Of a DNA stretch of 64,000 nucleotides, positions 749 through 46,020 are shown piece by piece. Source of the DNA: a virus. Its lineage: Duplodnaviria > Heunggongvirae > Uroviricota > Caudoviricetes. Location of the stretch: the IMG/VR virus record IMGVR_UViG_3300021140_000485; one strand, 5' to 3'. A program made the translations under genes and the position numbers. Position 1 is the first letter of the stretch. The number at the start of each line of letters is the position of its first letter. The notes under the pieces were generated by a model. The model made no database searches. It had not been told where the DNA came from and saw nothing but the letters and a program-made list of their open reading frames with translations.

Positions 749-1390
749 TTATACGTTCTCTCTAATTATTTTACATGGGTTACCGTATGCAACCACATTG
801 TCAGGGATATCTTTAGTTACAACTGAACCTGCACCTATAATAGAGTTCTTACCTATTTTAACTCTGTGTAATATGTTTGTCCCCATACCTATTGTTGTAC
901 CTTCCCCTATGGTTACGTTTCCCGCAATGTTGGTGCCAGGATTAATGGAACAATAGTCACCTATGATTGTGTGATGACCAATAGATACGTGTCTGTTGAT
1001 TGATACAAAATCCCCCACTGTGGTATGTGCTGCAATTGAAACCTTTGAGTTAATTAGAACCCCACGTCCGAGTTCACTCATGTGTGATATGTCCAAACCA
1101 TCGTGTATAACATTAATGAACTTATTAATGTCAGGATTTATTGTCTCTATAATCTTTATCTTATGTTGAGGTTGGTATACTCCGAGAACAATCTTATCGT
1201 AGTTGTTTAAATCCACATCATCAAACAATTCTATATTGAAACCATCATGTGTGAATGTATTAATAATCGGTAACCCCAAATTGTTGTATATGTGAATGTC
1301 AGGCATTCTTCTGTTTATTGAATATAAATTATCCAATATCATTGTTATTATACTATCCCCCTTACCGAGAATTAATAATTTTGTTTCCAT
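749..1390 (-). CDS. Hexapeptide-repeat (left-handed beta-helix) sugar N/O-acetyltransferase, NeuD/PglD-like.
   Basis: The C-terminal half is built of [LIV]GxxxxI hexapeptide repeats ('VSIGHHTIIGDYCSINPGTNIAGNVTIGEGTTIGMGTNI') and the N-terminal part is Rossmann-like, as in NeuD. Confidence 0.8.
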   Translation of the reverse strand: METKLLILGKGDSIITMILDNLYSINRRMPDIHIYNNLGLPIINTFTHDGFNIELFDDVDLNNYDKIVLGVYQPQHKIKIIETINPDINKFINVIHDGLDISHMSELGRGVLINSKVSIAAHTTVGDFVSINRHVSIGHHTIIGDYCSINPGTNIAGNVTIGEGTTIGMGTNILHRVKIGKNSIIGAGSVVTKDIPDNVVAYGNPCKIIRENV

Positions 1391-2189
1391 ATCCCTTTTC
1401 TCTTAATTCCGCAGATGTATAATGTTCCATATCAAATTCATCCATCAATCTGTGGGCTCTTTTTAATAACTGCATGTTGGTGGTTTTTTCCTTACCCCTA
1501 TAATATAAATTATCTTCCAAACCTATTCTGATTCCATCAAAATCCAATAACCCATAGGTCATACTCTTTAACTGTTGTGAACCTATTCCACCCAAACACG
1601 TAAATGAGTTCGTTGGTAAGTTATTTTTAATTGTTGATAACGTACCAAATTCACATTGACCATTGTAGATATTTCCCAAAATCATATTGATGTGGTGTGG
1701 AGACTTTAATATGTTCTTTGAAATAAGATAGTTTGTATAGTTTAACATACCCGTATCAAAACATTCTATCTCAGGTTGTACCCCGTATTTGTCCATCTCA
1801 TTAATTAAAGACAATATCATCTCAGGTTGGTTAACCGATGTTCCTGATGGGAAGTTTAATGATGACATTGTTAGTGAACCCATGTCAGGATATAATTGTA
1901 GAACCTCCGCTCTTTGTGATAGTTCAGGGAAATTCCTACCTGTTAATGAAACGCAAATCAATAACTCAGGACAATACTTCTTTATCCCCTCTATTATCTT
2001 CTGATATACTTCCTTCTTGTATGTATTTTCTAACGTAACCTCATCCCTTGCATGAAGATGAACAATGGATATACCAATCTCATTTGCACCTATTACCTCA
2101 TCCACAATCTCACTTGGAGTTAATGGAGCAAACGAATTAATCCTCGTTGTCTGAGTACCTGTTGGAGTAAAATTAATTATTTTCTTCAT
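1362..2189 (-). CDS. BKACE / DUF849 family enzyme (3-keto-5-aminohexanoate cleavage enzyme-like beta-keto acid cleavage).
   Basis: The N-terminal signature 'PTGT....PLTPSEI....A...G.SIVHLHARD' matches the Kce family TIM-barrel. Confidence 0.75.
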   Translation of the reverse strand: MKKIINFTPTGTQTTRINSFAPLTPSEIVDEVIGANEIGISIVHLHARDEVTLENTYKKEVYQKIIEGIKKYCPELLICVSLTGRNFPELSQRAEVLQLYPDMGSLTMSSLNFPSGTSVNQPEMILSLINEMDKYGVQPEIECFDTGMLNYTNYLISKNILKSPHHINMILGNIYNGQCEFGTLSTIKNNLPTNSFTCLGGIGSQQLKSMTYGLLDFDGIRIGLEDNLYYRGKEKTTNMQLLKRAHRLMDEFDMEHYTSAELREKGYGNKIINSR

Positions 2190-7420: not shown

Positions 7421-7680
7421 CGGTTTTTAATTTCATCACCGTAACAAATAACAACCCCCAGTAAAAATATACCAAGAACCGTCCCTATAATTGTGTAAAA
7501 GTGTTCAGGTCTCATAATCTATAATTTAAAAAAGTTTATCGTACAACCATCTGAATACATAATCGACTCCTCTAAAGATAACGTAAACAAGACAATAAAG
7601 TAGGAGGAGGTAGATTAAAATCATACCACAAAGATATAATCTTATTTTGATATAACCAACACGACCACTATTTATTTTTA

Positions 7681-7953
7681 ATGGATAACGCAATCGTCAT
7701 AAAAAAACTACTACTAGCCCTTTTGAGGAGACAGTACCCCGAAATTGTTGATGTCGTAGTTAGTGTTAGAAAGGACCCTATGTTAGAATATCGCACAGAT
7801 TATTTTATCTACATTGGAGTCGCTTATAAGGACTTGTTAAATATCAATGCAAGTAAAATGATGAACGATGCCAGAGAAATTGTTTACGATGTTGCAGGAG
7901 GAAGAAATAGTTTTAATAGCGTTTCAATTCAAACCTATGACCCGAATAATTAA
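7681..7953 (+). CDS. Hypothetical protein.
   Basis: 90-aa ORF on the minority strand. Confidence 0.45.
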   Translation: MDNAIVIKKLLLALLRRQYPEIVDVVVSVRKDPMLEYRTDYFIYIGVAYKDLLNINASKMMNDAREIVYDVAGGRNSFNSVSIQTYDPNN

Positions 7954-8381
7954 GTTGTTGAATTAATCGACTCAGCAATCATCTTTTTAAATTTTGTCGT
8001 ACTCCATCCGTGAGAACGATTTAAATAATGAATGTCAATTGGAAGTTCCTTACCAGTAAAGTCTTTATCTTTGTAATCATCACCCAGGAATCTCACACCA
8101 GGACTTACTTTCAAAATAAGTTCAACCAATTCTTTTTCTGTTGTGTAGGTTGAGACCTCATTAACGTATTTAAGTGATAACAACATTTTGACTCTCTCCT
8201 CAACACTTAGGATTGGTTTTAACTTCTCAGGTCTTTCGATGGTTGGGTCAGTGTGCAACAACACGTGGACCCAATAACAATGTTCTTTCATCTCTTTGAA
8301 CATCTCGATATATCCAGGATGGATAACATCAAAATTACCAGCAATCACACCAATACTATACTTCTCACTATTTGGTTTCAT
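7950..8381 (-). CDS. Cytidylyltransferase-like nucleotidyltransferase (TagD / RfaE-domain-II fold).
   Basis: 'GVIAGNFDVIHPGY' matches the (T/H)xGH nucleotidyltransferase motif, with HPGY as a variant. 143 aa. Confidence 0.65.
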   Translation of the reverse strand: MKPNSEKYSIGVIAGNFDVIHPGYIEMFKEMKEHCYWVHVLLHTDPTIERPEKLKPILSVEERVKMLLSLKYVNEVSTYTTEKELVELILKVSPGVRFLGDDYKDKDFTGKELPIDIHYLNRSHGWSTTKFKKMIAESINSTT

Positions 8382-11053: not shown

Positions 11054-11743
11054 TTATCTGATTTTACCAACACTAAACCCGTCGCTATCTACAACAATCC
11101 CTGTTCTTTTGAAGAAATTTTCATAGAAGTAGTCATTTAATTCATCTTGTATCTCCATACTAACTTCCCATCCAATCTCCTCATCATTAACAACATCTTT
11201 CAAATTTCTAGGTTCATAGTCACCTGTCATAACTAAACTAACAGTACCATCTACGATTGCCCAAAAATCAATTCGTTTTAAATCTTCATTTACGTGGTAG
11301 TTTTTTATTTTGAAGTCAAAGTTGTATCCACCACTTTCTACGTGATGTTTTGATAACAAAAAGTCTAAATTATTTTTAATTATATTATCAAAACCACCCA
11401 ACACATTTCTAATTAAAATATGACGAGCTTTTTCAAGAGTCATCCCATTTTTACCAATAAAAAACTCTTTGAATGTGTCATCCAATAAAGGTCGTTTAGT
11501 TAAAACTCTTTTAACAGTCTCATCGAATGATGTGTCTTCATTGATTGGATTTGGTTGGTTATCGTGCCAACACTTATGACAAATGTATGTGTCATCACCA
11601 CCTTCAGATATCTTCCAAGACCACCCACAATTATCACATATAACCTCACCATTCTCAACTTTTTCGGTAAGTAATGTCATAACTTGTTTTATACGTGAAA
11701 TGTCTTCAGATAGTCTCATATTAATAAATATCCCTATCACCAA
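11054..11743 (-). CDS. Zinc-ribbon protein with the leader 'MRLSEDISRIKQVMTLLTEK'. The likely start is the internal Met at 11719.
   Basis: CxxC...CxxC ('CDNCGW...ICHKCW'). Confidence 0.55.
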   Translation of the reverse strand: MVIGIFINMRLSEDISRIKQVMTLLTEKVENGEVICDNCGWSWKISEGGDDTYICHKCWHDNQPNPINEDTSFDETVKRVLTKRPLLDDTFKEFFIGKNGMTLEKARHILIRNVLGGFDNIIKNNLDFLLSKHHVESGGYNFDFKIKNYHVNEDLKRIDFWAIVDGTVSLVMTGDYEPRNLKDVVNDEEIGWEVSMEIQDELNDYFYENFFKRTGIVVDSDGFSVGKIR

Positions 11744-12456
11744 TAACCAACATCTTTCTTAAAATGCTCAATGTTGTGTCTGTTAAAATAGTTGCTTATT
11801 ACCAATCTAATCATTCCAAAATACCCCATCTTTAGAAATCTACGATTATCTTGCCCAACATAGTGTTTTGATATTTGGAACTTTTTTGGACTGTATTGTT
11901 TACTGAGATGATAATCTTCTGAGTGTTGGAGTGTTTCATCGAACCCATCTGTACTGAAGAACGCACTACGAGTTGTCATAAAATAAGTCCCTAACGCAAA
12001 CGGAACTTTCTTTTTCATAATGTGATTAATCCTGTTGAAAATCTTAAATATCATTTCACATTTAACATCACCATTTATACACCTAACATTACAAGTCAAC
12101 AAATCAAGGTTGTTATCCTCCATTTGTTTTAACGTGTCTTTTATTTGATTTGGGTTTAATAACGTTGAGTCAGCATCAAGGAATAAAATATATGGTGTAG
12201 TACTTCTCATCGCACCTTGATTTCTCCCGTAAGCTACAGGACCACCATTAATCAACTCAATTTTGATTGTTGGCTCATAATAAGTTTTTAAAGACTTAAC
12301 TAAGTCTCTTGTACCATCGGTGCTCTTAGCGTCTGCGACAATAACTTTAGTTCCCCAAATCCCATTTTGTGAAGCGATACTTGTAATTGTAGCATCAATA
12401 TACTTCCATTCATTATAGGATGGTATCACAATTGTTAGTTTATCTTTAATACTCAT
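11737..12456 (-). CDS. Family-2 glycosyltransferase.
   Basis: 'LTIVIPSYNE', 'VIVADAKSTDGT' and 'LFLDADS' (DxD) are GT-A fold motifs. Confidence 0.8.
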   Translation of the reverse strand: MSIKDKLTIVIPSYNEWKYIDATITSIASQNGIWGTKVIVADAKSTDGTRDLVKSLKTYYEPTIKIELINGGPVAYGRNQGAMRSTTPYILFLDADSTLLNPNQIKDTLKQMEDNNLDLLTCNVRCINGDVKCEMIFKIFNRINHIMKKKVPFALGTYFMTTRSAFFSTDGFDETLQHSEDYHLSKQYSPKKFQISKHYVGQDNRRFLKMGYFGMIRLVISNYFNRHNIEHFKKDVGYW

Positions 12457-13135
12457 TCAATTCAAATTTTCCGTTATTATAAATAATGTAGGATTTGTTT
12501 TCAATCCAATCACCACAGTTAAGATAATGAACATCACTCACCATCTTATCAGATGGTTGATGTATGTGTCCACAAATCACTGTATCACATCCTCTTTTTT
12601 TCGCTTGGTAAGCCAATTGTTTCTCAAAGGATGTCATAAATTGTACCGCCTCTTTAACACTGTCTTTAAGGTATTTAGATAATGAAAACTTCATACCCAT
12701 ACCTTTTAGTTTTCTATCGACATAAATTGCTAAGTCATATCCCATTGAACCGATAACACCTAACCATTTCCACTTGACAACACCGTCATATAAATCACCG
12801 TGTGTTACAAAAACATTTTCACCAAACTTATATTCGTTGACGATTTTTATGTTACCGAAATCAATATCATCATACGACCTTAAGAAGTCATCGTGATTAC
12901 CTGATACGTAAATAACCTCAGTCCCATTCTTTGAGTAAGATAATATCTTTCTAATCACGTTTGTGTATGATTGTTTCCAATAAAATCTTTTTTTAAGTAA
13001 CCATCCATCTATAATGTCCCCCACCAAAAAAAGATATTTTGGTTCATACTTTTTAAGGACTTCAATTAGTTCTTCAGCGTTTACTCCTCGAGCACCCAAG
13101 TGAACATCTGAGATAAACAACGCATCAATTTTCAT
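12446..13135 (-). CDS. Calcineurin-like metallophosphoesterase (LpxH-like pyrophosphatase architecture).
   Basis: 'ISDVHLG' and 'LVGDIIDGW', plus later GNHD/GH motifs. Confidence 0.7.
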   Translation of the reverse strand: MKIDALFISDVHLGARGVNAEELIEVLKKYEPKYLFLVGDIIDGWLLKKRFYWKQSYTNVIRKILSYSKNGTEVIYVSGNHDDFLRSYDDIDFGNIKIVNEYKFGENVFVTHGDLYDGVVKWKWLGVIGSMGYDLAIYVDRKLKGMGMKFSLSKYLKDSVKEAVQFMTSFEKQLAYQAKKRGCDTVICGHIHQPSDKMVSDVHYLNCGDWIENKSYIIYNNGKFELNEY

Positions 13136-16282: not shown

Positions 16283-17137
16283 TTACTTAATCCCATACAT
16301 TAGATTGGTTCCATTTCCCAGGACCGTGGACGGTACGTTACCTTTCCACTTCTCAATCCATTGTTGTTGAATCAACATAGGAGTTAGTGTTTGTTGTCGT
16401 AGTCGGTTTGCTTCCGCTTCAGCCTTAGCTCTTGTTAACATCGCCTGAGCGTTACCTTCAGCAGTTGCCACTTTAATCTTAGCCTCAGCCTCAGCTTGTT
16501 TTACTTTGTTCTCAGCCGTTAAAGCCGCTTGGACCGCGTTATTCTTAGCTTCAATTGCTTTCTTGAATGTTTCAGGGTAAACCAAGTTAGATGTAAACTG
16601 ACTTAGAATAAACCCTTCAGGTTCAAGTTGTTTTACCAAAACACTTCTAACCTTCAACTCAAACAATTCACGGTTTGAAATCAATTCATCCGCAGTGTAT
16701 GAGTTAGCAACAACTCGGAAAGCATCATACACAGCCGTCTTTAGAAATCCACCTTCAATATCACCCAACTCAACACGATACTTTGAAAAAATGTAAGGTA
16801 CTTTTTCACGTTTAACTGAGTAGTTCAACAATGGTGATACGTGAAACTCGGAACCGTCTTTTGAGTTAACAACAAACGACTCATCGATTTCATTCTCCCT
16901 GTCCAACTTATATTCTTTGTGTTGAACGTATGTTGGGAACTCAACAATTTTTGTACTGATTGGGTTATAAAATACCCACCCTGTTACCTCAGTAACATCA
17001 TCAACACCTTTACCATCTCCATAGAGATTTACCTTAACACCTACGTGTCCTGCATCAATACGTTCACATCCTGCGAACATAGTGAAAATTAATACCAAAG
17101 CAATTACGCTTCCCAAAATTTTAGTTAGATTGCTCAT
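16283..17137 (-). CDS. SPFH/band-7 (prohibitin/HflC-like) membrane protein.
   Basis: N-terminal TM segment, then an SPFH core, then a C-terminal Ala/Glu/Lys-rich coiled coil 'AEAEAKIKVATAEGNAQAM...'. Confidence 0.75.
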   Translation of the reverse strand: MSNLTKILGSVIALVLIFTMFAGCERIDAGHVGVKVNLYGDGKGVDDVTEVTGWVFYNPISTKIVEFPTYVQHKEYKLDRENEIDESFVVNSKDGSEFHVSPLLNYSVKREKVPYIFSKYRVELGDIEGGFLKTAVYDAFRVVANSYTADELISNRELFELKVRSVLVKQLEPEGFILSQFTSNLVYPETFKKAIEAKNNAVQAALTAENKVKQAEAEAKIKVATAEGNAQAMLTRAKAEAEANRLRQQTLTPMLIQQQWIEKWKGNVPSTVLGNGTNLMYGIK

Positions 17138-17366
17138 CTTCTTTTTTGTTTGTTTTAAATAAATTAATTAATGAATCCGCAACATTTTTAATTACATAAA
17201 CTCCGCCAATAAAGGTTGCTAATAAAAATGCGAAGCCAATTATTACAAGTGCACTGTCAGGTTTATTCATAAAAATAAATGAATAGTCCATAATTTCCCA
17301 CATCACCAATACAGTGATTACGATTAATGCTAAATGGAATAACGTTTTTATAAGGATATTTTTCAT
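17121..17366 (-). CDS. Small membrane protein.
   Basis: Two hydrophobic helices. Confidence 0.5.
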   Translation of the reverse strand: MKNILIKTLFHLALIVITVLVMWEIMDYSFIFMNKPDSALVIIGFAFLLATFIGGVYVIKNVADSLINLFKTNKKEDEQSN

Positions 17367-19626: not shown

Positions 19627-19914
19627 ATGGCCGACAGGAATTTTTATATGAGAAGAGTATTGACCAAAATTGTAAAAAATATGGTTAGTAAAAATCCTGC
19701 ATTCAAAAATATTCGTTCAGTTGAAATACAATTCTTACTTAAATCTCCTGTTAGAAGCGCAATGTGTGATTGGGTTTATGGTCTTACTATCAAGACATAT
19801 AACGATGATGTTAACCAACCTCAAATAATTTCTCAAATAAAAGAAAGAATTGATTCTGTTACATCACAACTAACAAAAGACACTTTCTGTCTCACCGACT
19901 ATTACTTCGAGTAG
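19627..19914 (+). CDS. Hypothetical protein.
   Basis: 95-aa ORF. Confidence 0.4.
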   Translation: MADRNFYMRRVLTKIVKNMVSKNPAFKNIRSVEIQFLLKSPVRSAMCDWVYGLTIKTYNDDVNQPQIISQIKERIDSVTSQLTKDTFCLTDYYFE

Positions 19915-21029
19915 TCGTATTTACGAAAAATCCCATCTACCGTATGTAACGCTTGAGCAACCACTTGGTGCATATCATAATAAGCATAGGTCCCAAGTCT
20001 ACCCCCAAATATGTATTTAGATTCAGACTCTGTCAATGATTTATATTTTTCATAAATCTCAACATTTTTACCGTCTCTGATTGGGTAATATGGTTCGTTC
20101 TCACCAGTATACTCACAAGAGTATTCCTTACTGATATAAGTACCTTTTTGATTCTTAGGGTCAAACCATTTATGTTCTAATATTCGAGTATACTTAGTAT
20201 CAGAATCAGTAAAATTCATTACAGGGTTTCCTTGGAAGTTGTCAACTTCTAATTGGTAATTCTCCCATCTAAGACTACGATATTCCAATCGACCAAATTC
20301 GTAATCGTAAAACTTATCAATTGGTCCTGTGTAAATTATCTTATCAGATAAAGACTCAAGGATATCTCTATTCTCAAAAAAATCAAATTCAGTCAGTACT
20401 TCAATACCTGATAGTAGTTTTTCAAAAATTTGGGTATAACCTCCGTCAGGAATTCCTTGGTACTTGTCATTGAAATAATTGTTATTCCAAGTAAATCTAA
20501 CAGGTAATCTTTTAATAATGGATGGTGGTAGTTCAGAACATTTCTTATCCCATTGTTTCTCAGTATAACCTTTAATCAACTTTTCATATATGTCAGTCCC
20601 TACCATTGAAAGAGCTTGTTCTTCCAAATTAGTGATAGGTCCCTTATATTTTTGTTCATCAATCATATACTGTGCCTTTTCAGGTGTGTTAACACCCCAC
20701 AGTTGATTGAATGTCCACATATTGAAAGGTAATGAGTAAATCTCACCCTTATAGTTAGCCAAAGGTGAATTAACAAACTGATTAAAAGTTGCAAATCTGT
20801 TTACGTAGTTCCAAACTCTTTCATCATTAGTATGGAATATGTGAGCACCATACTTGTGAACGTGTATACCGTCTATATTTTCAGTATAACAGTTTCCACC
20901 GATATGATTTCTTTTTTCAACAACTAATACGTTGAATTTCTTACTTAGTTCGTGGGCGCAGATTGCTCCAAAGAGACCTGCCCCCACGATTACAAAGTCA
21001 TAATGTCTATAGGAAGTCAAAAACGACAC
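19902..21029 (-). CDS. glf: UDP-galactopyranose mutase.
   Basis: N-terminal FAD fold 'YDFVIVGAGLFGAICAHEL....VEKRNHIGGNCYT' and length/sequence colinear with Glf. Confidence 0.85.
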   Translation of the reverse strand: MSFLTSYRHYDFVIVGAGLFGAICAHELSKKFNVLVVEKRNHIGGNCYTENIDGIHVHKYGAHIFHTNDERVWNYVNRFATFNQFVNSPLANYKGEIYSLPFNMWTFNQLWGVNTPEKAQYMIDEQKYKGPITNLEEQALSMVGTDIYEKLIKGYTEKQWDKKCSELPPSIIKRLPVRFTWNNNYFNDKYQGIPDGGYTQIFEKLLSGIEVLTEFDFFENRDILESLSDKIIYTGPIDKFYDYEFGRLEYRSLRWENYQLEVDNFQGNPVMNFTDSDTKYTRILEHKWFDPKNQKGTYISKEYSCEYTGENEPYYPIRDGKNVEIYEKYKSLTESESKYIFGGRLGTYAYYDMHQVVAQALHTVDGIFRKYDYSK

Positions 21030-22164
21030 TGTCAGGAGATAATACAGGTTTATTAATCTTGTTCTCTAATCTTTCTTTGAACTCATACAAGAAGTTAGAT
21101 GAATTAGTATAACATCTATCCTCAATCAAGAAACACAAATTAGGATATGGGTTTTCTCTACCTTCATTAATCATTTGTTCAACAACCTCAAGAGCTTCTT
21201 TGTTCCTTTGTCTTTTCTCATAAAAGAATGCCAAATACATCAAGTGTTCATTTCTTGTTGGAGAGAACGGTCCTGCAGATTTGTAGTGTTCTTCCGCTTT
21301 ATCATACTCCCCTCTAAAGTTATATGCTTCACCCAAAAGTATAAATGTTAGATATGACATCTCATCTAATCTTGCAGGTTTACCAGTATTAAACCAGTTG
21401 TGATTAAGTGCTAAAAACTTATTAAAGTAGAAAATCGCTCTACGAGCATATTCGTCTGAGTGGTCCTTTCCAAATGCAAGTTCATCAGGATTTCCATAAC
21501 AATCAGCATAACTCTTACCAACATACCAAAGATGATACATATCCTCATTGATGGTGTTTCCAACAACTTTGTCAATTTCTAATTCCAAAGCATCTCTCAA
21601 AAACTTTCTTGGTGCAAACCAAGTCTGACCATCATTTGTGATTAAGTGTCTAAATCCAAAAGGTAGAACCATTCTTTGGAAATTTTCACCGACTTCAGGT
21701 AAGTGAATTGTTTCGTGTCTTTTATCGTGTTGAAAAAACCAAGGTCTTTTTGCATTCCATAACCAAGTTCTGTAATACTTTGTACCCATTGCCTGAGCTG
21801 TAATGTTGAATGAATCAATTGAAGTGTCTTCCAATACAGTCCAATCAAAGTCCTCATCAACAATTAGTTGTTCATCAGCATCCATTCTCAGAATCCAATC
21901 ACATCCGTGGTCAGCCTTCAAACATTCCTGTAAGGTATGGTCTCTATTCCATCCTGGATATTGCCATTCAATCTCATACAGGAATCCAGGAATCCCTTTT
22001 TCTTTGAAGTAGTTTCTTATAATGTCTTGTGTTCCGTCAGTAGACCCATTGTCCTGTATAACCCAATAATCAATATATTGGAAACAGGAGTCTAACATTC
22101 TTGTGATAGTTCTGGCCTCATTAGCCACCATCGCGTTTAAGCAAATTTTGGTTTTTTTATTCAT
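21007..22164 (-). CDS. Glycosyltransferase (GT-A-like N-terminal domain) with a C-terminal helical-repeat region.
   Basis: 'YWVIQDNGSTDGT' and 'MDADE'. The C-terminus has TPR-like helices. Confidence 0.65.
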   Translation of the reverse strand: MNKKTKICLNAMVANEARTITRMLDSCFQYIDYWVIQDNGSTDGTQDIIRNYFKEKGIPGFLYEIEWQYPGWNRDHTLQECLKADHGCDWILRMDADEQLIVDEDFDWTVLEDTSIDSFNITAQAMGTKYYRTWLWNAKRPWFFQHDKRHETIHLPEVGENFQRMVLPFGFRHLITNDGQTWFAPRKFLRDALELEIDKVVGNTINEDMYHLWYVGKSYADCYGNPDELAFGKDHSDEYARRAIFYFNKFLALNHNWFNTGKPARLDEMSYLTFILLGEAYNFRGEYDKAEEHYKSAGPFSPTRNEHLMYLAFFYEKRQRNKEALEVVEQMINEGRENPYPNLCFLIEDRCYTNSSNFLYEFKERLENKINKPVLSPDSVVFDFL

Positions 22165-23404
22165 AAATGTAATTCATTACTTGTTCTTGTTTATAGTATT
22201 TTTTGATTGGGACACTGTTTTGGAACTTTTGTGAGTGTTGTGTAATCTCATCCCAATTCCAATCAAAATAACCCATTTCTTCAATTCTGTCGTGTATTCT
22301 TTTATCATAGAAGTCCCTGATTAATCTGGCCCTACGATTAATATCTGTTGCATTATTATCAACTGTTGAGTTGTTATTGTTGTATTGTAGATATAACACC
22401 TTCTTTACGTGAATCATCTTGGTTTCTAAAAATGTACGAATAAGAATCTCCAAGTCATCAGCAACAGGTGTTAATTTATTGTGTCCTGAAATATTATGAT
22501 AAACACTTCTCTCCCACATTCTAGCGTGGTTTGGCATTGTGATATTGAATCTAATTGTGAGTGGGTTTACATCAGGGTACCAATGAGCAAGTCTATCAAC
22601 ACCGTCAACATTTACCCAACTGTGTCCAGCATACCCAAAGTCAAAATAGTTATCGTGACGAGCATACCAATTACCAGTCCAATCGTGGTCATAAAACTTA
22701 GGTTCACCGTCCTCGTATATCTCTGAACAATCAGTATAAAGAAATCCCGCGTCAGGGTATTTTAATATTGCATCATTAGCGGTTTCAAGACAAGTTGTAA
22801 CCAAACAATCATCGTGGTCCAATTCAATCAACCAATCACCATCACCTAACATAGCTGCACGATGTTTAGCCAAACCAATATTACCACCCGATAATGGATA
22901 AATCCTGTGAGGTTTTACCCGATAGTCTTTCTCCGCAATTTCAGTTATCATCTCCCAAGTTTCAGGGTCAGGCGAATCATCAACCACAACCCATTCCCAA
23001 TTATCAAAGGTTTGGTTGTTTAAAGACTCATAAGTCCTATAAATCCTTTCTCCTGTTTTGTAGGTTGGTGTGAAAATTGTAAATCTTGGTCTAAAATATT
23101 CACAGTTTCTAAACACAGTCTGACAAACAATTACGTTCGCCAAAATTGCTTCATCAATCGGTTCATCATAGTGAATGTGAAATCTTTTCAAATGATAGTG
23201 TGGGATGTTTACTTCTTCACCAAAACTTATAATTAAGTCAGGTTTATATTTTGTATAATCACCAACGACATCGTTTGTATATGGTAGATTATAAACAACA
23301 ACATCATCAAACAGATGTTCTTCCCAGTATATTTGTGAGATTAAGGTTGTTTCACCTTCCGTACCTAATCCATACACTATTGCTGACGGTTTTTTTGTCT
23401 TCAT
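22157..23404 (-). CDS. Family-2 glycosyltransferase with an N-terminal extension.
   Basis: 'FTIFTPTYKTGERI', 'WVVVDDSPD' and 'IELDHDD' (DxD). Confidence 0.75.
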   Translation of the reverse strand: MKTKKPSAIVYGLGTEGETTLISQIYWEEHLFDDVVVYNLPYTNDVVGDYTKYKPDLIISFGEEVNIPHYHLKRFHIHYDEPIDEAILANVIVCQTVFRNCEYFRPRFTIFTPTYKTGERIYRTYESLNNQTFDNWEWVVVDDSPDPETWEMITEIAEKDYRVKPHRIYPLSGGNIGLAKHRAAMLGDGDWLIELDHDDCLVTTCLETANDAILKYPDAGFLYTDCSEIYEDGEPKFYDHDWTGNWYARHDNYFDFGYAGHSWVNVDGVDRLAHWYPDVNPLTIRFNITMPNHARMWERSVYHNISGHNKLTPVADDLEILIRTFLETKMIHVKKVLYLQYNNNNSTVDNNATDINRRARLIRDFYDKRIHDRIEEMGYFDWNWDEITQHSQKFQNSVPIKKYYKQEQVMNYIYE

Positions 23405-23491
23405 ACGTTCAAAACATAGTTATTTAAAGTGTTGTTGTAAAGTTCATATAAAAGAAAAGGTCCTCTTTCGAGGACCAATTCACCAACCATC

Positions 23492-24232
23492 TTATACCCA
23501 CTCCATCATAATCTGAGACTTCCCGTTCCATTCTTTGATTTGACGTTTCGGAACCCAAAACTCCATCTCTCCGATTTCCTCAACTCGTTTGAGGTATGCC
23601 TCACGGTAAGCTCCGGCTTCAGAAGAGTTCTTGATGTAAGGGATTCTCATATGCTTTGAACAAATCTTACCCATTCCTGTCAACATTGAGAACTCATCAG
23701 TCAAATCTTTACCACAACACATACAAACCTTCATACGGCTTACGGTCATCTTACCTGAGAACTTAACCGCCTTTGGTGAGATAGCCAAAATCTTAGTGAT
23801 ATCCAAGATTGTTGGGTTGAACTCAAGGTTGTAAGTCTCCTTCATTTGTTGACCGATTTTACGTCCAACCTTGATGGTTTCTCCTACGGTTGGAAGTTTG
23901 AAGTTGATAGTCTTAGACTTGTCTTCTTCCTTCTCGATTTGTTTGAGAGCTGCGTTGATTTGTTTGTTGGTCAACGTTCCCCACTTTTGAAGTTTAAGAG
24001 AGATGTCTTTCACGAAGGTGCTCTCACCGTTGTATTCAACGATTTTCTTCAACTCGGGACGTTCCTCAACGTTCAAAGTGGTTACAGGTGCATTGAGACA
24101 TTTCTCAGCGGCTTCGACTTGCTTGGGAGTCAAACGACCCCACTGGTTAAGAGATTCTTTCATTTTAAGGATGAAGCTGTTGTTACCTTGGTAGTTACGA
24201 ACTTTTTCTTGGGTAGTGATGGTGGTTGTCAT
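23492..24232 (-). CDS. Hypothetical protein with two 'WG(R/T)LTxKQ' repeats and a C-terminal Zn-ribbon. The start is set to the internal 'MTTTITTQEK'.
   Basis: Codon usage here is GC-richer and C-ending than in the rest of the window. The upstream 44 codons of the ORF lack coding character. Confidence 0.55.
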   Translation of the reverse strand: MTTTITTQEKVRNYQGNNSFILKMKESLNQWGRLTPKQVEAAEKCLNAPVTTLNVEERPELKKIVEYNGESTFVKDISLKLQKWGTLTNKQINAALKQIEKEEDKSKTINFKLPTVGETIKVGRKIGQQMKETYNLEFNPTILDITKILAISPKAVKFSGKMTVSRMKVCMCCGKDLTDEFSMLTGMGKICSKHMRIPYIKNSSEAGAYREAYLKRVEEIGEMEFWVPKRQIKEWNGKSQIMMEWV

Positions 24233-24333
24233 ATTGGTTGGTTTTAAATTCAATACAAAGATAAGGAAAGTTTTGGTTCCCACAACACAATTCAAAAAAA
24301 AATCCCCTCTTTTTTTAGAGGGGATTGTCACTC

Positions 24334-24798
24334 TTAGTTTTGAGTGAAGGCTTGGTCTGCCCAAGTCTTAGCTCCGAAGAATTCCCAAATCTTCATATCA
24401 CACATATCGGGGAAAGACTCTCTCATTGTACCTACAGTCAACACGTCCAAGAATCCTTTGTCGATACTGTTCCACTTGTTTCCTTTGGTGGTCAATACGT
24501 TCATCCAGTTACCGTATTCGTCCTTCACTTGAACGTTAACAAGTGTGTTCTTCTTGTATCCACTGATAACTCGCTTGGGAGTTCCTTTGGTGTCGTGGAT
24601 ACTGATGAACCCTGCTCGACACTTACCAGCGATACGGAACTCATACTCTTTGTTCTCGTCTTTAAGGTGGTTAGAAACCGATACAGTGTGACGTTTGCTC
24701 TTTACAATGGTTTCGAAACTTCCGTAGAATACGTCTCCTGCCATTACGCCTTCAGTAACTTTGATGATAGATTTTGGGGTGGTGGTTGTGGTTGTCAT
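24334..24798 (-). CDS. Hypothetical protein (N-terminus 'MTTTTTTPKS').
   Basis: 154-aa ORF with the same GC-rich codon usage. Confidence 0.55.
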   Translation of the reverse strand: MTTTTTTPKSIIKVTEGVMAGDVFYGSFETIVKSKRHTVSVSNHLKDENKEYEFRIAGKCRAGFISIHDTKGTPKRVISGYKKNTLVNVQVKDEYGNWMNVLTTKGNKWNSIDKGFLDVLTVGTMRESFPDMCDMKIWEFFGAKTWADQAFTQN

Positions 24799-26219: not shown

Positions 26220-27170
26220 TTCTGGCACTTAGGTTGAGAATACACCTTCGATTAAGAATCTTTAGGGACATTATTGTTTCTTCCCGTTTCCACTACCTTT
26301 TGAGTAGTAATTCTTAGTGACGGTTCCTTAGGGGTACCATTCCTTGAGTCGTGCGGTTACTCTCTTTGTACTTGTTACTCTCCGAGGTTGCCACCCCAGT
26401 GAATCCTTGCGGGATTAGAGAACTTTCTCAAGAATCATTTGGGTCTTGGGAACCCATAATGGCAATGAACATCTCATTACTATGTAGTCACCTTTCGCCT
26501 ACGACTGACAGACACTTTTCCTTCGTCTTTTAGTATTTGCATACTTCAAAATGCAAAGTTGTTGGTCTGTGGATGGTGAAAGTAGCGGTCTGCCAACCAG
26601 ACAAGCCATCTTTTGAACGACTCGATACTGAACTACTCTCTGAGATATCCCTACCTCGATACTTCAAGAAATCTTCATAATTAAAATCTTGGTAGATTCT
26701 AACTAAGGTTACCAACAGCACCACCTGTACGATAACATGACTTTCGTCTTTAAGACACCTCTGATATTGAATCCCGTGATTGTAAAGTTGGATGACTTTA
26801 CTTCTCACAACAATTCTACGAGTTATTCTTATTGTTCTTCCGAACTCAACTCAACGACCCACATCGCTGAGTCATCATTCCATTTTGTCTACAGTGTCAC
26901 CCTCGACTACTCAGGAACAATGATATCCCGCTTGCCTACTCGAGCTCTAAGAACCGAAGTTCAAAGAACCGCAGTCTCCGTTAACCTTCGGAGACCACTT
27001 TATCCCACTTTCGTGGTTTATTTATTGACCATAGGCGGCCAATTATCTTATTTACTAACCTGTTGGTTAGAAGGATAATCAAATATGTAAAAGAACGTGT
27101 TTCGTTAATTGTTTCACAAAGTTAAGAAGATTATTTTAATCTGTCAAGCACTTTGTAAAAGTTTTTTTTG
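26220..27170 (-). ncRNA. Candidate structured noncoding RNA or 3' trailer co-transcribed with tRNA-Met. About 950 nt, elevated GC, no ORF longer than 113 aa in any frame.
   Basis: Bounded by the tRNA (5' side on the minus strand) and a strong terminator (3' side). The frame-track ORFs here are short and non-protein-like. Identity unknown. Confidence 0.3.
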
Positions 27171-27244
27171 TTGCGGGAGTCGGACTCGAACCGACGGCCT
27201 CAAGGTTATGAGCCTTGCGAGCTACCAACTGCTACCACCCCGCG
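27171..27244 (-). tRNA. tRNA-Met (anticodon CAU), initiator-like.
   Basis: Reverse complement reads 'CGCGGGGTGGTAGCAGTTGGTAGCTCGCAAGGCTCATAACCTTGAGGCCGTCGGTTCGAGTCCGACTCCCGCAA'. It shows a cloverleaf, a C1·A72 mismatch, a GTCGG/CCGAC T-stem and TTCGAGT T-loop, the anticodon loop CTCATAA, and no encoded CCA. Confidence 0.85.
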
Positions 27245-33532: not shown

Positions 33533-34696
33533 TTAATCGTTATAAATTGAACCACTTTTATTTTCAGACTCTTCGAATTGATGTTGTTCCATAATATCTT
33601 TAAGTGGTGATTTTTGAGTATCAACTTTAGTATTCATATTATGAATAATCTTATCAAGAGTTAATGCAAAGTCCAGAGTTTCGGATATGATACCAACAAT
33701 TTTATATGGGTCACCATTTGATGCCGGTCTACGGTCTTCAACATAACCCTTCCATTCTTTTGATGTAGACAATGGAACTCTGATTGATGCACCTCGGTCA
33801 GCAACCCCCCAACTAAACTTGTCAATAGATTGGGTTTCGTGTTTACCAGTCAAACGAAGATTGTTATCAGAACCGTAATTGTTAATGTGTAACTGATGAC
33901 GTGAATCAAAGGCGTTAAAGATGTTTTTGAAGTATTCATCACCACCTTCATTTCTCATCTTGTCATTTGAGAAGTTACAGTGTAATCCTGAACCATTCCA
34001 ATCACCCATCACAGGTTTAGGGTGGAATTCAATCTTAAAACCATAGTCCTCAGACATTTGTTGTAAAATGTATCTCGACATCCACAAATCATCACCGGCC
34101 TTTAATTTACCTTTGGAGAATACCTGGTACTCCCACTGACCCAATAAGACCTCGGCGTTTGTACCTGTAATTTCAATACCTGCCAAGATACAATTTTCCA
34201 TATGAGTATCCACAAATTTTCTACCGTTAACTTGTCCGTTACCTACACCACAATAGTATTTTCCTTGTGGTTCAGGATATCCATTCTCAGGGAAACCCAA
34301 AGGTCTACCATCTTTCATAATGGTATACTCTTGTTCAAAACCAAACCAAAGGTCCTCTTCTTCTTCCCCAACAAGACTTCTTGTATTTGATACGTGTGGA
34401 GTCCCATCGGGATTCATAACCTCACACAACACCAAGAAAGACCATAGACCACCTTCGTTAAGTGAGTTGTGATAAACTCTAACAGGTTTCAAAATACAAT
34501 CAGAAAAATGTCCGTCAGCTTGTTGTGTTGATGAACCATCAAAACTCCACTCAGGGCAATCCTTCAGTGTTATAATATCCCCATATGGAATATTCTGAAG
34601 ACCAGTCTCTTCTTTTTCAATCACCTTAACCTTACTTCTAAGATTAGGTTCTGGCTGATACCCATCCAACCACACATATTCTAATTTAACTTTCAT
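33533..34696 (-). CDS. Glutamine synthetase type-II-like protein.
   Basis: 'LEYVWLDG', 'FDGSSTQQADG..SD..L.PV', 'LVLCEV', 'GVADRGASIRVP' and 'NGDPY' are colinear with the GSII beta-grasp and catalytic domains. Confidence 0.75.
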   Translation of the reverse strand: MKVKLEYVWLDGYQPEPNLRSKVKVIEKEETGLQNIPYGDIITLKDCPEWSFDGSSTQQADGHFSDCILKPVRVYHNSLNEGGLWSFLVLCEVMNPDGTPHVSNTRSLVGEEEEDLWFGFEQEYTIMKDGRPLGFPENGYPEPQGKYYCGVGNGQVNGRKFVDTHMENCILAGIEITGTNAEVLLGQWEYQVFSKGKLKAGDDLWMSRYILQQMSEDYGFKIEFHPKPVMGDWNGSGLHCNFSNDKMRNEGGDEYFKNIFNAFDSRHQLHINNYGSDNNLRLTGKHETQSIDKFSWGVADRGASIRVPLSTSKEWKGYVEDRRPASNGDPYKIVGIISETLDFALTLDKIIHNMNTKVDTQKSPLKDIMEQHQFEESENKSGSIYND

Positions 34697-38424: not shown

Positions 38425-39447
38425 GTGATGACAGGGAAATTACAAAGATTAATCGACGATGTTAATAATGGTAAATTTGATATTATCAAAGATTTTTTTG
38501 GTGATATGGAAACTTTTTTGGACTATCTTGGTAAAAAAGGTTTGATACACGAATTAGACCTTATTAACAACGAAGAAGAATTCGAATATGAAGTTAACAA
38601 AATAGCCCTCGCAATTAAAGAACATAATCCCGAAAAATTTAGAGAATATGTTTTATCTTCATTAAGTGATGTTACTTATGAAAATGGTGAATACTATGTG
38701 ACTTTGAATGATAAAAGTAGACTCGCGTATCTTTTTTGTGATGATAGAAGAAATGGTATGTCTCAATCAACAATATCAGAGATACTAGATGGTGAATGGG
38801 ATTTTGATTTTTGGGATACTACCGATAATGTTTATAGGGATGTTATTCAAGAACTAAATAAGGATAATCTTACTTATTTATCAAAAAAAATAAGTAACGA
38901 ATTATCTGACGTTAAGGTAGAACCTGAAACAGAATTGTTAGAAGAAATTGCCGAGGAACAAGGTCATCCTGAATATGTAACCTTAACCCCCGAGTTGATT
39001 CACGACAGAATATTCAATGATGAGGATTCAACAGAAAGTATTTTGAATGAAACCGAAAACATTAAATCAGATTTACACTCATTACATAACAGAGCATATG
39101 CAAATGCTTATGAAGATGAGGTGTATAGTGGTATAATGGATGAACTTGAAACATTTTTTGATATGCGCCATTCTGATTGGATAACAGTTCCAAGTAGTGT
39201 AAACCCAAACAAATCTTATACCTATTTCAAAGTTAAAATAAATAATTTTGATTCAGAGATTTCCGATTACCTTAATAACGCGAAGAATCATAATGAACCA
39301 TTAAGTAATTATGGTGACTATCTTAGTATTTTGAGTGAAAATATTAGTTATGGTAGTGCCAATTGTTTGGTATATTACACGCCTGATTATGCGGATTGGC
39401 CAAAAACAAAAGAAAATATTAACGAACTTTTTGGTGACTATTTTTAA
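38425..39447 (+). CDS. Acidic hypothetical protein.
   Basis: 340-aa ORF. Confidence 0.55.
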
Positions 39448-42400
39448 ATAATCCCCTTTAGTTTAGCTTTATCCAAAACTTTTTTAGCTCTCTCTTCAAG
39501 AGATGTTATTCTAACCTCTTGTTCTTTTAACGCTTCAATGTTAACGGCAATCATTTCTTTATAATTCATTGTTAACACTTTACCTTCAGTATAAATAACT
39601 TCAGGAACATAAGGCAAAACTTCTTGAGCAATAAATCCAATAGCTTTTTTGTCATTAGAACTATATTCTTTACCTCTCCATTTAAATGTGACACCTCTAA
39701 TACTTAATATCTTATTTAGAGCATCACCGATAGGTTTAACATCTTTTTTCAGTCTTTCATCTGAAGGACCTGTTGGTCCTTGTGGACCTTGAGCTCCTTG
39801 TGCTCCGAATGTTGAACTAGCACCTCCTTGAGCCCCTGGTGCTCCTTGTGCCCCTGTTGGACCTGGTGTTGCAGAACCTTGAGCACCTGTTGGTCCTTTA
39901 AGACCTGTAGGTCCTTGTGCACCGACGGCTCCCTCAAAACCTTGTGAACCTTGAGCTCCTTGAGCCCCTGTTGCACCTTGTGCACCTTGTGGTCCATTAG
40001 GAGACGTTGGCCCTTGAGCCCCTTGAGCTCCTTGAGCTCCAATAGCACCTGAATTTCCTTGAGCGCCTTGAGCACCTTGAGCGCCGGCTGTACCTGAACC
40101 TTGAGCACCTTGAGGTCCTGTTGGTCCTGTTGCACCTTGAGGTCCTGTTGGTCCTGTTGCACCTTGAGCACCTTGAAATCCTTGACCCCCTGTAGGTCCT
40201 ACGGCTCCTTGTGAACCTTGAGCCCCTTGAGGTCCTGTTGGTCCTGTTGCACCTTGAGCTCCTTGAGCTCCAACAGGTCCTTGAGCACCTGTGGCTCCTT
40301 GGAATCCCTGCTGACCATTAGGTCCTATTCCACCTACGTCCCCTTGAGCACCTTGCGCTCCTTGGAATCCTTGTCCTCCTGTTGCTCCTTGAGACCCTTG
40401 AGCACCTGTTCCTCCTTGAGCTCCCTGAAAACCTTGTCCTCCTTGCGCCCCTTGTGGACCTTGAGCTCCTGTGGCACCTTGAGCACCTTGAGCTCCCTGC
40501 CCACCTTGCGCTCCTTGTGGACCTATTGCTCCTTGGAAACCTTGTGCTCCTTGAAAACCTTGTCCTCCTTGAGCCCCTTGAGTTCCTGTTGCTCCTTGAG
40601 CACCTTGAGCCCCTTGTGCTCCCTGTCCTCCTGTTGCGCCTTGAGCTCCTTGTGCTCCTTGTCCTCCTGTTGCTCCTTGGACTCCTTGTCCACCTGTTGC
40701 TCCTTGCGCACCTTGGTTACCAACAGCACCTTGAGCTCCTTGGAAACCTTGAGCCCCCTGACCTCCTTGTGCACCTTGTACTCCAACAGCACCTTGAGCC
40801 CCTTGTGCTCCTTGGAAACCTTGTCCTCCTTGAGCACCTTGAGTACCTGATATACCTACAGAACCTTGAGAACCTTGAGCCCCTTGTCCTCCTTGAGCAC
40901 CTTGAGTTCCTGATACACCTTGAGCTCCTTGAGCCCCTTGGAAACCTTGACCTCCTTGAGCACCTTGAGTTCCTGTTGTACCTTGAGCCCCTTGAGCTCC
41001 TTGAAAACCTTGTCCTCCTTGAGCTCCTTGGGTTCCTGTTGCTCCTTGAGCTCCTTGAGCTCCTTGAGCTCCTTGGAAACCTTGAGCACCTTGGGTTCCT
41101 GTTGCACCTTGAGCCCCTTGAGCTCCTTGGAAACCTTGACCTCCTTGAGCCCCTTGGGTTCCTGTCGCTCCTTGTGCACCTTGAGCTCCTTGTGCTCCCT
41201 GTCCACCCTGAGCACCCTGAGTTGCTGTCGCTCCTTGCGCTCCTTGAGCTCCTTGAGCTCCTTGACCACCTTGAGCACCTTGGTTACCAACTGCCCCTTG
41301 TGAACCTTGAGCCCCTTGTGCTCCTTGTCCACCTTGGGCTCCCTGATTACCTTTAGCCCCTTGAGCTCCTTGCGCCCCTTGGGCTCCTTGACCACCTTGA
41401 GCACCTTGGTTACCAACTGCCCCTTGTGAACCTTGAGCCCCTTGCGCTCCTTGTCCACCTTGCGCTCCTTGTCCACCTTGAGCACCTTGAGCCCCTTGTG
41501 CTCCTTGAGCACCTTGTCCTCCTTGAGCACCTTGTGTTCCCGTTGCACCTTGAGCACCTTGAGCTCCTTGGAAACCTTGTCCACCTTGAGCACCCTGTGT
41601 TCCTGTTGCTCCTTGAGCCCCTTGTGCTCCTTGGGCTCCTTGTCCACCTTGAGCACCCTGTGTTCCTGTTGCACCTTGAGCACCTTGTGCTCCTTGGGCT
41701 CCTTGTCCACCTTGGGCACCTTGGTTACCCTTTCCACCTTGAGCACCTTGTGCTCCTTGGGCCCCTTGTCCACCTTGAGCACCCTGATTACCTGTCGCAC
41801 CCTGAGCCCCTTGAGCTCCTTGAGCTCCCTGTCCACCTTGTGCACCTTGGTTACCAACCGCTCCTTGTGAACCTTGAGCTCCTTGAGCTCCTTGTCCTCC
41901 TTGGGCGCCTTGGTTACCAACCGCTCCTTGTGAACCTTGAGCTCCTTGAGCACCTTGTCCACCTTGAGCACCTTGATTACCTTTTCCACCTTGAGCGCCT
42001 TGAGCTCCTTGAGCTCCTTGTCCTCCTTGGGCACCTTGGTTACCAACCGCTCCTTGTGAACCTTGAGCTCCTTGAGCTCCTTGTCCACCTTGAGCGCCTT
42101 GATTACCTTTTCCACCTTGGGCGCCTTGAGCACCTTGAGCACCTTGTCCTCCTTGAGCCCCTTGGTTACCTGTTGCCCCTTGAGCTCCTTGTGCGCCTTG
42201 TGAACCTTGCCCTCCTGTTGCTCCTTGGGAACCTTGAGCTCCTTGGGCTCCTTGACTACCAACCGCTCCTTGAGCACCTTGGTTACCAGTATTACCCTGA
42301 GCACCTTGTCCTCCTTGGGCACCTTGATTACCTTGAGCGCCTTGTGGTCCAGCATTTACATTACCTTTCCATCCGGTAGAGTCTATTATTAATCCGTAAT

Positions 42401-42602
42401 TGTTTGTAACTGTATTAGCACTTAAATTTGTATTTTGTACTTGGAATATAGGTGCTGTCTTGGCAATTTTTAGATATGTTGTTGTTTGATTTACAACATA
42501 ATTCAATGTAGAACTAGAATATACCAAATCACTTCGAGTATTCCCCGAATCATAAAATTGTATTGTTATACTTGCAGGTACTATTATTATATTCTCAGCC
42601 AC
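39444..42602 (-). CDS. Collagen-like (Gly-X-Gln triplet) fibre protein with a C-terminal intramolecular-chaperone / peptidase S74 domain. Candidate tail fibre.
   Basis: About 290 uninterrupted G-x-Q triplets. The C-terminus '[12 protein letters not shown]....FKWR......GFIAQEV' matches the SDxRLK auto-cleaving chaperone signature. The N-terminal roughly 90 aa is non-repetitive. Confidence 0.85.
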
Positions 42603-46017: not shown

Positions 46018-46020
46018 ATA

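Follow-up and report, generated by a model that had tools for sequence, protein, structure and literature searches.

The closest described counterpart of the genes considered here is the SgtA/BclA3 system of C. difficile, in which SgtA, a protein of 358 amino acids (aa) made of a GT-A domain (residues 1-260) and four tetratricopeptide repeats (TPRs), is encoded just upstream of bclA3 and transfers in vitro beta-O-GlcNAc from UDP-GlcNAc onto Thr (and Ser) in peptides that represent the Gly-Pro-Thr part of the BclA3 collagen region (PMC7157674). Among viruses, Mimivirus L230 shows that virus enzymes may modify the virus's own collagen-like proteins (PMC9614988). Tailed phages of the Pootjesviridae (RL38J1, P10VF) encode a bona fide UDP-galactopyranose mutase (Glf), for which a role in DNA hypermodification has been proposed together with GT-B-like transferases and a 5-hydroxy-dCMP synthase (PMC13326640). 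Here we describe a cassette of three genes at positions 19902-23404, on the minus strand, of a 64,000-nucleotide (nt) stretch of DNA from an uncultured freshwater tailed virus (Caudoviricetes, IMG/VR record IMGVR_UViG_3300021140_000485; the whole stretch is hereafter called the window). The cassette encodes two family 2 glycosyltransferases (GT2), which we name GT2b and GT2tpr, and a Glf. On the basis of gene neighbourhoods, homology and predicted folds, we lean towards the view that the cassette targets the collagen-like fibres of the phage itself and that galactofuranose (Galf) is part of the glycan.

Phage Glf, the SgtA-type glycosylation of bacterial collagen regions and the modification of Mimivirus collagen are already known, and it is the link to phage fibres, drawn from comparative evidence, that is new. 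No paper relating the glycosyltransferases of phages to collagen-like fibres turned up in our literature searches, and a Galf-containing glycan on such fibres, which are the most likely target, has not been described for a phage before. To our knowledge, virion glycosylation by phage-encoded enzymes is known only from mycobacteriophages: Che8, Corndog and Myrna reportedly glycosylate virion proteins (work of Freeman et al. in 2023) with glycosyltransferases encoded away from the structural genes. Unlike the situation proposed here, the targets in those phages are capsid and tail-tube proteins, and other enzymes and sugars are involved, with no Glf.

Three enzymes in one cassette

The cassette consists of three consecutive minus-strand open reading frames (ORFs) in the order GT2b, GT2tpr and Glf. 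The preliminary description of the window had recognized a Glf gene accompanied by two overlapping GT2 genes, an arrangement borne out by the ORFs and their Pfam matches, and had given overlaps of 4 and 23 nt. The larger value holds for GT2tpr and Glf when the GTG start is used (14 nt if translation begins at an in-frame TTG three codons downstream), whereas the stop of GT2b and the start of GT2tpr overlap by 8 nt (ATGAATAA) and not by 4.

GT2tpr (21007-22164, minus strand, 385 aa) combines an N-terminal Glycos_transf_2 domain (9.8e-8), whose D95-A-D97 (DxD) motif is invariant in 46 homologues, with a weak Pfam TPR at residues 274-309 and matches to consensus-TPR sequences of the PDB down to 5e-10. 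Its AF2 model (pLDDT 88) has a GT-A fold, with helices over residues 180-334, and its top matches among solved folds are ThuS and SunS (E 5e-15 to 4e-13), about six orders of magnitude ahead of the next fold family, TarS/TarP (~1e-7); at the sequence level there is also a weak match to GmaR, the O-GlcNAc transferase of flagellin. SunS, ThuS and GmaR are, like GT2tpr, GT2+TPR enzymes, and together with SgtA all of these relatives act directly on polypeptides, although SunS and ThuS modify small bacteriocin precursors (through S- or O-linkages) and GmaR modifies flagellin, at an identity of 14-15%. In Clostridium sp. C2-6-12 a 358-aa GT2+TPR gene stands directly before a BclA-like gene, and its product is collinear with GT2tpr over 262 residues (25% identity, E 4e-8). 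At the level of families, GT2tpr aligns with the Firmicute 358-aa GT2+TPR proteins encoded beside BclA-like genes over 264 columns spanning both domains (hhalign probability 97.6%, E 3e-12), even though pairwise identity is ~25% and the phage family carries an insert of ~40 residues. We tentatively equate this Firmicute family with SgtA by length, architecture and gene position (PMC7157674) and not by the C. difficile SgtA sequence itself. GT2tpr and SgtA thus share an N-terminal GT-A/GT2 domain, a C-terminal TPR domain and, for GT2tpr as a proposal, Thr at the collagen Y position as acceptor; they differ in that the present gene belongs to a phage and not to a spore, lies away from its presumed substrate genes and has a Glf partner. 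Taken together, these resemblances in sequence and model suggest that GT2tpr is peptide-directed in the manner of SgtA, SunS and ThuS, and we propose that it could be the initiating O-glycosyltransferase on Ser/Thr of collagen repeats.

GT2b (22157-23404, minus strand, 415 aa) has its Glycos_transf_2 domain (PF00535, 8.4e-16) at residues 109-223, preceded by an unannotated N-terminal alpha/beta domain of ~100 aa, and the residues D142-D143, D196-H-D198-D199 and D316-D317 are invariant in relatives of 47-100% identity. The AF2 model (pLDDT 79) is again a GT-A fold, with K4CP, SpsA, TarP and RmlT as neighbours, that is, generic GT-A enzymes acting on glycans or teichoic acids, which do not by themselves identify the acceptor; they fit an elongating role in the model-based scheme proposed below.

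The third product, Glf (19902-21029, minus strand, 375 aa), covers the Pfam GLF model fully (PF03275, 1.9e-75, positions 1-203 of 203) and also matches NAD_binding_8 (1.9e-23). Its identity had been read earlier from the FAD motif and from colinearity with Glf, and both aspects stand: the Rossmann motif GxGxxG is present as VGAGLFG at residues 14-20, and the protein is collinear over residues 10-367 with Glf of E. coli (PDB 1i8t, 2.2e-145), besides matching 12 other solved sequences of UDP-galactopyranose mutases (UGM). The eight residues which we take to be those binding the substrate (Y151, W156, R170, Y181, R278, Y311, Y346 and D348 in E. coli numbering) are all identical in Glf, by hand count on the HMMER alignment to 1i8t. 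The mutase identity of Glf, the GT-A folds and domain architectures of the two transferases and their intact catalytic motifs are established here at the level of sequence and model, as are the genomic associations described below, and Glf can be assigned with little reserve as a UDP-galactopyranose mutase predicted to supply UDP-galactofuranose (UDP-Galf).

A terminator-like hairpin found by a consensus scan (GGTCCTC-GAAA-GAGGACC followed by a T-run, 23459-23476, minus strand) separates the cassette from the upstream DUF6011 gene, and a weak promoter-like site (TTTACA-17-TATGTT, 9 of 12 positions matching, 23413-23441, minus strand) lies just upstream of the GT2b start. Since both precede GT2b, the three genes may form a transcription unit of their own. 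Terminator-like sites are enriched in the region (14 against 4.8 +/- 2.5 in shuffled sequences), and promoter-like sites showed no enrichment over shuffles.

These properties bear on the idea that the cassette adds Galf to a surface polysaccharide of the host (O-antigen, capsule or teichoic acid) and thereby blocks superinfection or re-adsorption of virions. Galf is typical of bacterial O-antigens and capsules, the nearest solved folds of GT2b (K4CP, TarP, RmlT, SpsA and WrtF) are enzymes of polysaccharides or teichoic acids, and the authors of a pelagiphage survey read glycosyltransferases among tail-fibre genes as O-antigen modifiers (PMC7029224). However, the cassette proteins are predicted to be soluble, with no stretch compatible with a membrane span in any of them (maximal 19-residue hydropathy 0.43-1.38, as against 2.2-2.5 for two membrane proteins encoded in the window and taken as controls), and judging from the Pfam families of the neighbours no flippase, polymerase or Gtr-type partner stands in or beside the cassette. 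The fold and architecture of GT2tpr point to peptide acceptors, and modification of the host surface leaves unexplained both the link to collagen and the co-variation with fibre sequence described below. We therefore consider a host-surface target quite unlikely, and the earlier suggestion of seroconversion or superinfection exclusion found no support, as transmembrane segments and Gtr/Wzx/Wzy-type partners are missing from the cassette.

Collagen-like proteins as the candidate acceptors

The fibres that we regard as acceptors are encoded by three minus-strand genes some 16 kb from the cassette, so that GT2tpr is not beside a collagen-like gene in the window. Three large collagen-like fibre proteins had indeed been announced at about this distance, and each holds 197-275 uninterrupted Gly-X-Y triplets. 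Fibre 1 (39444-42602, 1052 aa) has 197 triplets in runs, with Thr at 27 Y positions, and matches tail-fibre PHROGs; fibre 2 (42595-46017, 1140 aa) has 275 triplets with Thr at 75 Y positions, and fibre 3 (46021-49284, 1087 aa) has 247 with Thr at 61. All three end in a Peptidase_S74 intramolecular-chaperone domain (2.4e-17, 3.9e-13 and 6.2e-14, respectively), a hallmark of trimeric phage fibres. Most triplets are Gly-Ala-Gln, Thr being the second commonest Y residue (23%), and the repeats are poor in proline (13% at X, 2% at Y) and in lysine (0.9% at Y). All three are proposed as candidate acceptors. It is relevant that collagen-like proteins of viruses and bacteria contain Thr-Gly-Ala and Thr-Gly-Pro triplets anomalously often, that Ac-(Gly-Pro-Thr)10-NH2, otherwise a random coil, forms a triple helix only when its Thr residues are galactosylated, and that the authors of the survey suggest Thr glycosylation as an alternative to proline hydroxylation for stabilizing the triple helix (PMC11923368). 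The collagen-like genes also form a sharp G+C island (0.43-0.56 against ~0.33 in the rest of the window), which presumably follows from the GGN-GCN-CAR codons of the Gly-Ala-Gln repeats, and long spurious ORFs run in other frames and on the opposite strand over 39444-49284.

The association of the cassette enzymes with such genes emerges from their relatives. Scanning IMG/VR with GT2b, and then with an alignment of GT2b relatives, returned 93 loci of two layouts. In the layout that departs from that of the window (58 loci, GT2b 47-64% identical), collagen repeats lie upstream of GT2b in 43 of 58 loci, at a median distance of 873 bp, and in 23 of the 28 loci that have at least 3.6 kb of upstream flank. 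Almost all of these loci (54/58) encode a 2-oxoglutarate (2OG)-Fe(II) oxygenase of ~195 aa and/or a DUF6445 protein of ~192 aa, and in the loci checked for gene order these lie between the collagen genes and GT2b. The oxygenase is a member of PF13640, and the PDB sequence closest to it is that of PiuC, a PKHD-type hydroxylase. Downstream of GT2b one meets GT2tpr, a GT4, a GT4+GT9-like protein, a GT4-OGFOD2 fusion or, in one lineage, a carbamoyltransferase, and baseplate and tail sheath genes come after the glycosyltransferases. The gene for GT2tpr adjoins collagen genes in several of these phage loci (L015-L018, L021 and L237-L239 in our numbering) and in the bacterial loci L062, L068 and L111. 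As a rough control, collagen repeats occur within 10 kb in 3 of ~45 viral Glf loci devoid of GT2b (Glf 45-58% identical). In the carbamoyltransferase lineage, the enzyme (Carbam_trans_N plus Carbam_trans_C, 555 aa; L021 6335-8002, and L120) is inserted between GT2b and GT2tpr, which may mean that the sugar is carbamoylated.

The residue at the Y position of the repeats varies with the enzymes present. Among phage loci with at least 30 collagen triplets, which are not all independent and which we estimate to represent about five lineages on each side, the 12 with a GT2tpr-like gene have no Lys at Y (0.0%) and 10-84% Ser+Thr, while the 26 with the GT4-OGFOD2 fusion and without GT2tpr have 4.5-35% Lys. 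With Lys at 0.9% and Thr at 23% of Y positions, the window fits the GT2tpr class. Such co-variation is as expected if the enzymes act on the repeats. In the Lys-rich phages, the 2OG oxygenases and the GT4-OGFOD2 proteins recall the logic of L230 and of animal collagen, in which hydroxylation precedes glycosylation (PMC9614988); an O-linkage to Ser/Thr would instead follow SgtA. Unlike L230 and animal LH3/GLT25D1, the window has the low Lys content just given and, over its 64 kb, no hydroxylase homologue as judged by the relatives' 2OG oxygenases; furthermore, the cassette enzymes are GT2 and not GLT25D1-like, and the linkage proposed is to Ser/Thr and not to hydroxylysine. The analogy with giant-virus fibrils drawn in the preliminary description would extend to viral self-modification of collagen-like proteins, but the closest analogue is not the giant-virus system; it is the bacterial glycosylation of collagen-like proteins of the spore surface (C. 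difficile SgtA/BclA3). The fusion itself, a 570-aa protein joining a GT4 to an OGFOD2-like 2OG oxygenase and encoded directly after GT2b (L022-L029, L243-L265), occurs only with Lys-rich Y repeats and may correspond, in phages, to LH3 and L230, which are bifunctional hydroxylase-glycosyltransferases.

A similar picture is obtained in bacteria, which were scanned with the GT2b alignment, one genome per species. Among the 80 best loci (31-52% identity), 47 have collagen-like repeats within 10 kb and 20 within 2 kb. Collagen repeats amount to 4.9% of all flanking bases, a share that would seem far above expectation for bacterial genomes. Spore-formers (Paenibacillus, Bacillus, Clostridium, Lysinibacillus and Thermoactinomyces) account for most of these loci, and the neighbouring collagen proteins often bear C-terminal domains of the BclA type, that is, of the spore surface. 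SgtA-type bacterial loci also contain GT2b homologues: next to the BclA-like gene of Clostridium sp. C2-6-12 are genes for a GT2-methyltransferase and for a homologue of GT2b (35% identity, E 4e-48). Elsewhere, the gene order in Methylovulum miyakonense is a CBM96-collagen protein, two tail-collar-domain proteins, a GNAT protein, an Asp/Asn-hydroxylase-like protein and the GT2b homologue, and that of a metagenome-assembled genome (MAG) of the Vampirovibrionaceae is collagen, DUF6445 and GT2b. The GT2b family thus appears, from these genomic neighbourhoods, to be linked to collagen-like genes in phages and bacteria alike, and GT2b can be considered the probable core enzyme of a collagen-associated cassette.

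One may object that the acceptor is a protein other than the fibres, for instance the capsid or the tail sheath or tube, as in the mycobacteriophages, or a host protein, and that the link to collagen reflects nothing but placement in a variable structural region. It is true that GT2tpr looks peptide-directed while nothing singles out which peptide, that the cassette of the window adjoins no structural gene and that the cassette of the distant relatives is also beside tail sheath and baseplate genes. Nevertheless, bacterial loci devoid of phage tail genes show the collagen association as well, and the accessory enzymes co-vary specifically with the residues at collagen Y positions. An acceptor of this kind seems unlikely to us, and the fibres remain our preferred target.

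Several observations weigh against the fibres as acceptors. The window cassette sits in a non-structural region, 16 kb from the fibre genes, and the loci that resemble it (35 loci, GT2b at least 68% identical) show the same: the order GT2b, GT2tpr, Glf is found in 27 of 27 such loci with enough downstream flank, usually with a DUF6011 gene ahead of the cassette, and collagen repeats were found within 10 kb in none of the 35. For this reason the link to collagen rests on orthology with enzymes that are 47-64% identical. The search for association across related genomes, then, speaks for the link in distant relatives (43 of 58 with collagen) and not in window-like loci, where one case was met at ~19 kb: the contig IMGVR_UViG_3300032296_004087, connected with collagen repeats through a glutamine-synthetase query, begins in such repeats, with the glutamine synthetase gene following at 5.3 kb and GT2b at 19.4 kb, so that its long-range arrangement is that of the window. 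A search of IMG/VR with the C-terminal S74 domain of the fibres gave no contig in common with the cassette contigs, and the 583-aa neighbour of the fibres, used as a query, found no relative there at all. On the bacterial side, most deltaproteobacterial GT2b loci have no collagen nearby, and a Syntrophobacterales locus lies among housekeeping genes with no collagen nearby either. Moreover, the fold neighbours of GT2b act on polysaccharides and teichoic acids and not on proteins, most collagen-linked cassettes have no Glf, we know of no protein O-galactofuranosyltransferase, and the role so far proposed for phage Glf is a different one, as discussed below.

Galactofuranose and its possible destinations

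In viral contigs, every Glf that is at least 62% identical to that of the window directly follows a GT2tpr gene, and a divergent trio (L020) keeps the same order with GT2b, a GT2tpr-like protein and a FAD protein of 418 aa that is a distant relative of Glf. Several other lineages (L015-L018, L238, L239) have GT2b and GT2tpr without Glf. Since Glf is absent from most collagen-linked cassettes, Galf is not intrinsic to the system, and Glf would best be regarded as an optional accessory that changes the sugar and not as part of the core. Which transferase would use UDP-Galf can be argued in two ways: the Galf transferases known so far use glycans as acceptors, and this would speak for the elongating enzyme, whereas the translational coupling of Glf with GT2tpr points to GT2tpr. 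That Galf ends up on the fibres is the weakest link of our interpretation. The fibre glycosylation put forward in the preliminary description is thus partly supported: the linkage to collagen, the peptide-type GT2tpr and the co-variation with Y residues give considerable comparative support to the fibres as target, and the Galf part is the least secure.

Phage Glf proteins are annotated in ~90 phage records and grouped in PHROG family 9677, and DNA hypermodification is the only role so far proposed for them (PMC13326640). By this token the cassette could serve a Galf-containing hypermodification of phage DNA, as in RL38J1 and other Pootjesviridae: the 5-hydroxycytosine of RL38J1 DNA is hexosylated, galactose being the sugar next to the base, and the Glf of this phage has been proposed as the source of UDP-Galf (PMC13326640). 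That system needs a thymidylate-synthase homologue with the substitution Asp169Asn (PMC13326640), and a tblastn search of the 64-kb window with E. coli ThyA found no homologue of ThyA or dCMP hydroxymethylase; no base-hydroxylating enzyme was found in the window. A ThyA is encoded beside the L020 cassette and was considered as a 5-hydroxy-dCMP synthase; this was rejected, as the protein keeps the canonical Asp169 and Asn177 and lacks the Asp169Asn signature. Likewise, the 2OG oxygenases of the phage relatives were considered as base hydroxylases of the TET/JBP type and rejected in view of their PF13640 assignment and of their nearest PDB sequences, which are PKHD-type protein hydroxylases. Besides, the transferases proposed to act on RL38J1 DNA matched GT-B-type templates (PMC13326640), whereas both cassette transferases are GT-A/GT2; no Rhizobium phage has a GT2b homologue; and the window Glf, translationally coupled to a peptide-type GT2+TPR enzyme, is only ~44% identical to Pootjesviridae Glf. 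On the evidence of the 64-kb window and of these relatives, a role in DNA modification is, in our opinion, very improbable.

Returning to the fibres, it is tempting to sketch how the cassette might work; the acceptor, the order in which the transferases act, the enzyme that uses UDP-Galf and the benefit are here what we infer. The fibre proteins would be modified in the host cytoplasm during infection. The TPR domain of GT2tpr would hold the fibre polypeptide while a first sugar is placed on Ser/Thr at the Y position, as in Gly-X-Thr, after which GT2b would extend or further decorate the glycan; Glf would convert UDP-galactopyranose of the host into UDP-Galf, and one of the two transferases would add Galf. 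The benefit may lie in stabilizing and shielding a proline-poor triple helix that has no hydroxyproline, and the glycan may also tune adhesion or host recognition.

A bolder proposal, which we find possible but would sooner doubt than endorse, is that tailed phages and bacteria share a so far undescribed toolkit centred on GT2b that modifies collagen-like proteins by two interchangeable chemistries, and that Glf was recruited to it here, giving fibres with O-linked Galf. In one chemistry, Lys-rich repeats would be served by protein hydroxylases fused or adjacent to a GT4; in the other, Lys-free repeats bearing Ser/Thr would be served by an SgtA-like GT2+TPR enzyme; and the glycan would be needed for a proline-poor triple helix to fold or to stay stable.

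Collagen-like fibres are common on phages, and their folding without hydroxyproline, as well as their possible modification, is largely unexplored. If the cassette does glycosylate fibres, the sizes of the two transferase families in metagenomes (~900 and ~1,900 sequence clusters) indicate that such modification would be widespread, and it would matter to the way in which abundant freshwater phages recognize their hosts, to the stability of their particles and to their antigenicity. It would also tie phage fibres by evolution to the BclA glycoproteins of the spore surface and provide enzymes for glycosylated recombinant bacterial collagens. A testable rule emerges as well, by which the set of modification enzymes would predict the Y-position residue of the repeats. 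Should O-linked Galf be present on the fibres, this would be the first Galf glycoprotein of any virus.

The phage and the genes around the cassette

The viral nature of the window is supported by the tail-fibre PHROG matches of the fibres, by a nearby gene matching endolysin PHROGs and by the tail sheath genes of the IMG/VR relatives; these matches lie far outside what chance would give. The cassette has a G+C content of 0.35-0.37, like the flanking phage DNA, and freshwater metagenomes, among them that of Lake Mendota, contain identical genes on contigs as long as ~95 kb. With 44 kb of the window as query, megablast gave no match to GenBank phages, so that this collection holds no cultured close relative. 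The genes around the cassette (glutamine synthetase, DnaJ, sigma factor, thioredoxin, NUDIX, RNA ligase) are those usual in a large lytic phage with many auxiliary genes. The annotated GT2b homologue of Synechococcus phage S-CRM01 lies among auxiliary genes, and its neighbours are uninformative.

Upstream of GT2b, the DUF6011 gene (23492-24364, minus strand) encodes 290 aa with a C-terminal zinc-ribbon-like motif; it precedes GT2b in nearly all window-like relatives and does so too in L240 and L250-L252, which lack GT2tpr and Glf. At the other end, an ORF of 95 aa on the plus strand (19627-19914), called a gene by the metagenome annotators, overlaps the 3' end of Glf by 13 nt and has no family match. 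A third GT2 (11737-12456, minus strand, 239 aa, PF00535 1.5e-24) overlaps a Metallophos phosphoesterase gene (12446-13135, minus strand), and two window-like relatives have a homologue of ~40% identity some 9-11 kb downstream of Glf. Further genes resembling those of sugar or small-molecule enzymes, at 749-2189 (minus strand) and ~7500-8000, encode a hexapeptide-repeat acyltransferase (213 aa), an enzyme of the BKACE family (275 aa) and a CTP_transf_like nucleotidyltransferase (143 aa).

On a 1.5-kb contig (L036) binned into an Aquiluna MAG, the end of a Glf gene precedes a GT2b gene (52% identical to that of the window). A piece of phage DNA wrongly placed in the MAG is a likelier source than a host genome, and a host assignment from it was not used, the contig being too short to trust.

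Further away, the glutamine synthetase gene (Gln-synt_N plus Gln-synt_C, 33533-34696, minus strand) has at least ~600 close pattern matches in IMG/VR, many of them on contigs with collagen-like genes within 10 kb. Also on the minus strand are a full-length DnaJ with its zinc-finger domain (53523-54458), a sigma-70-family factor (62651-63460), an SPFH/Band_7 protein with an overlapping small membrane protein (16283-17366) and a tRNA-Met (27170-27244), the single tRNA noted in the window. Finally, a small Hc1 histone-like gene is located near 55.9 kb.

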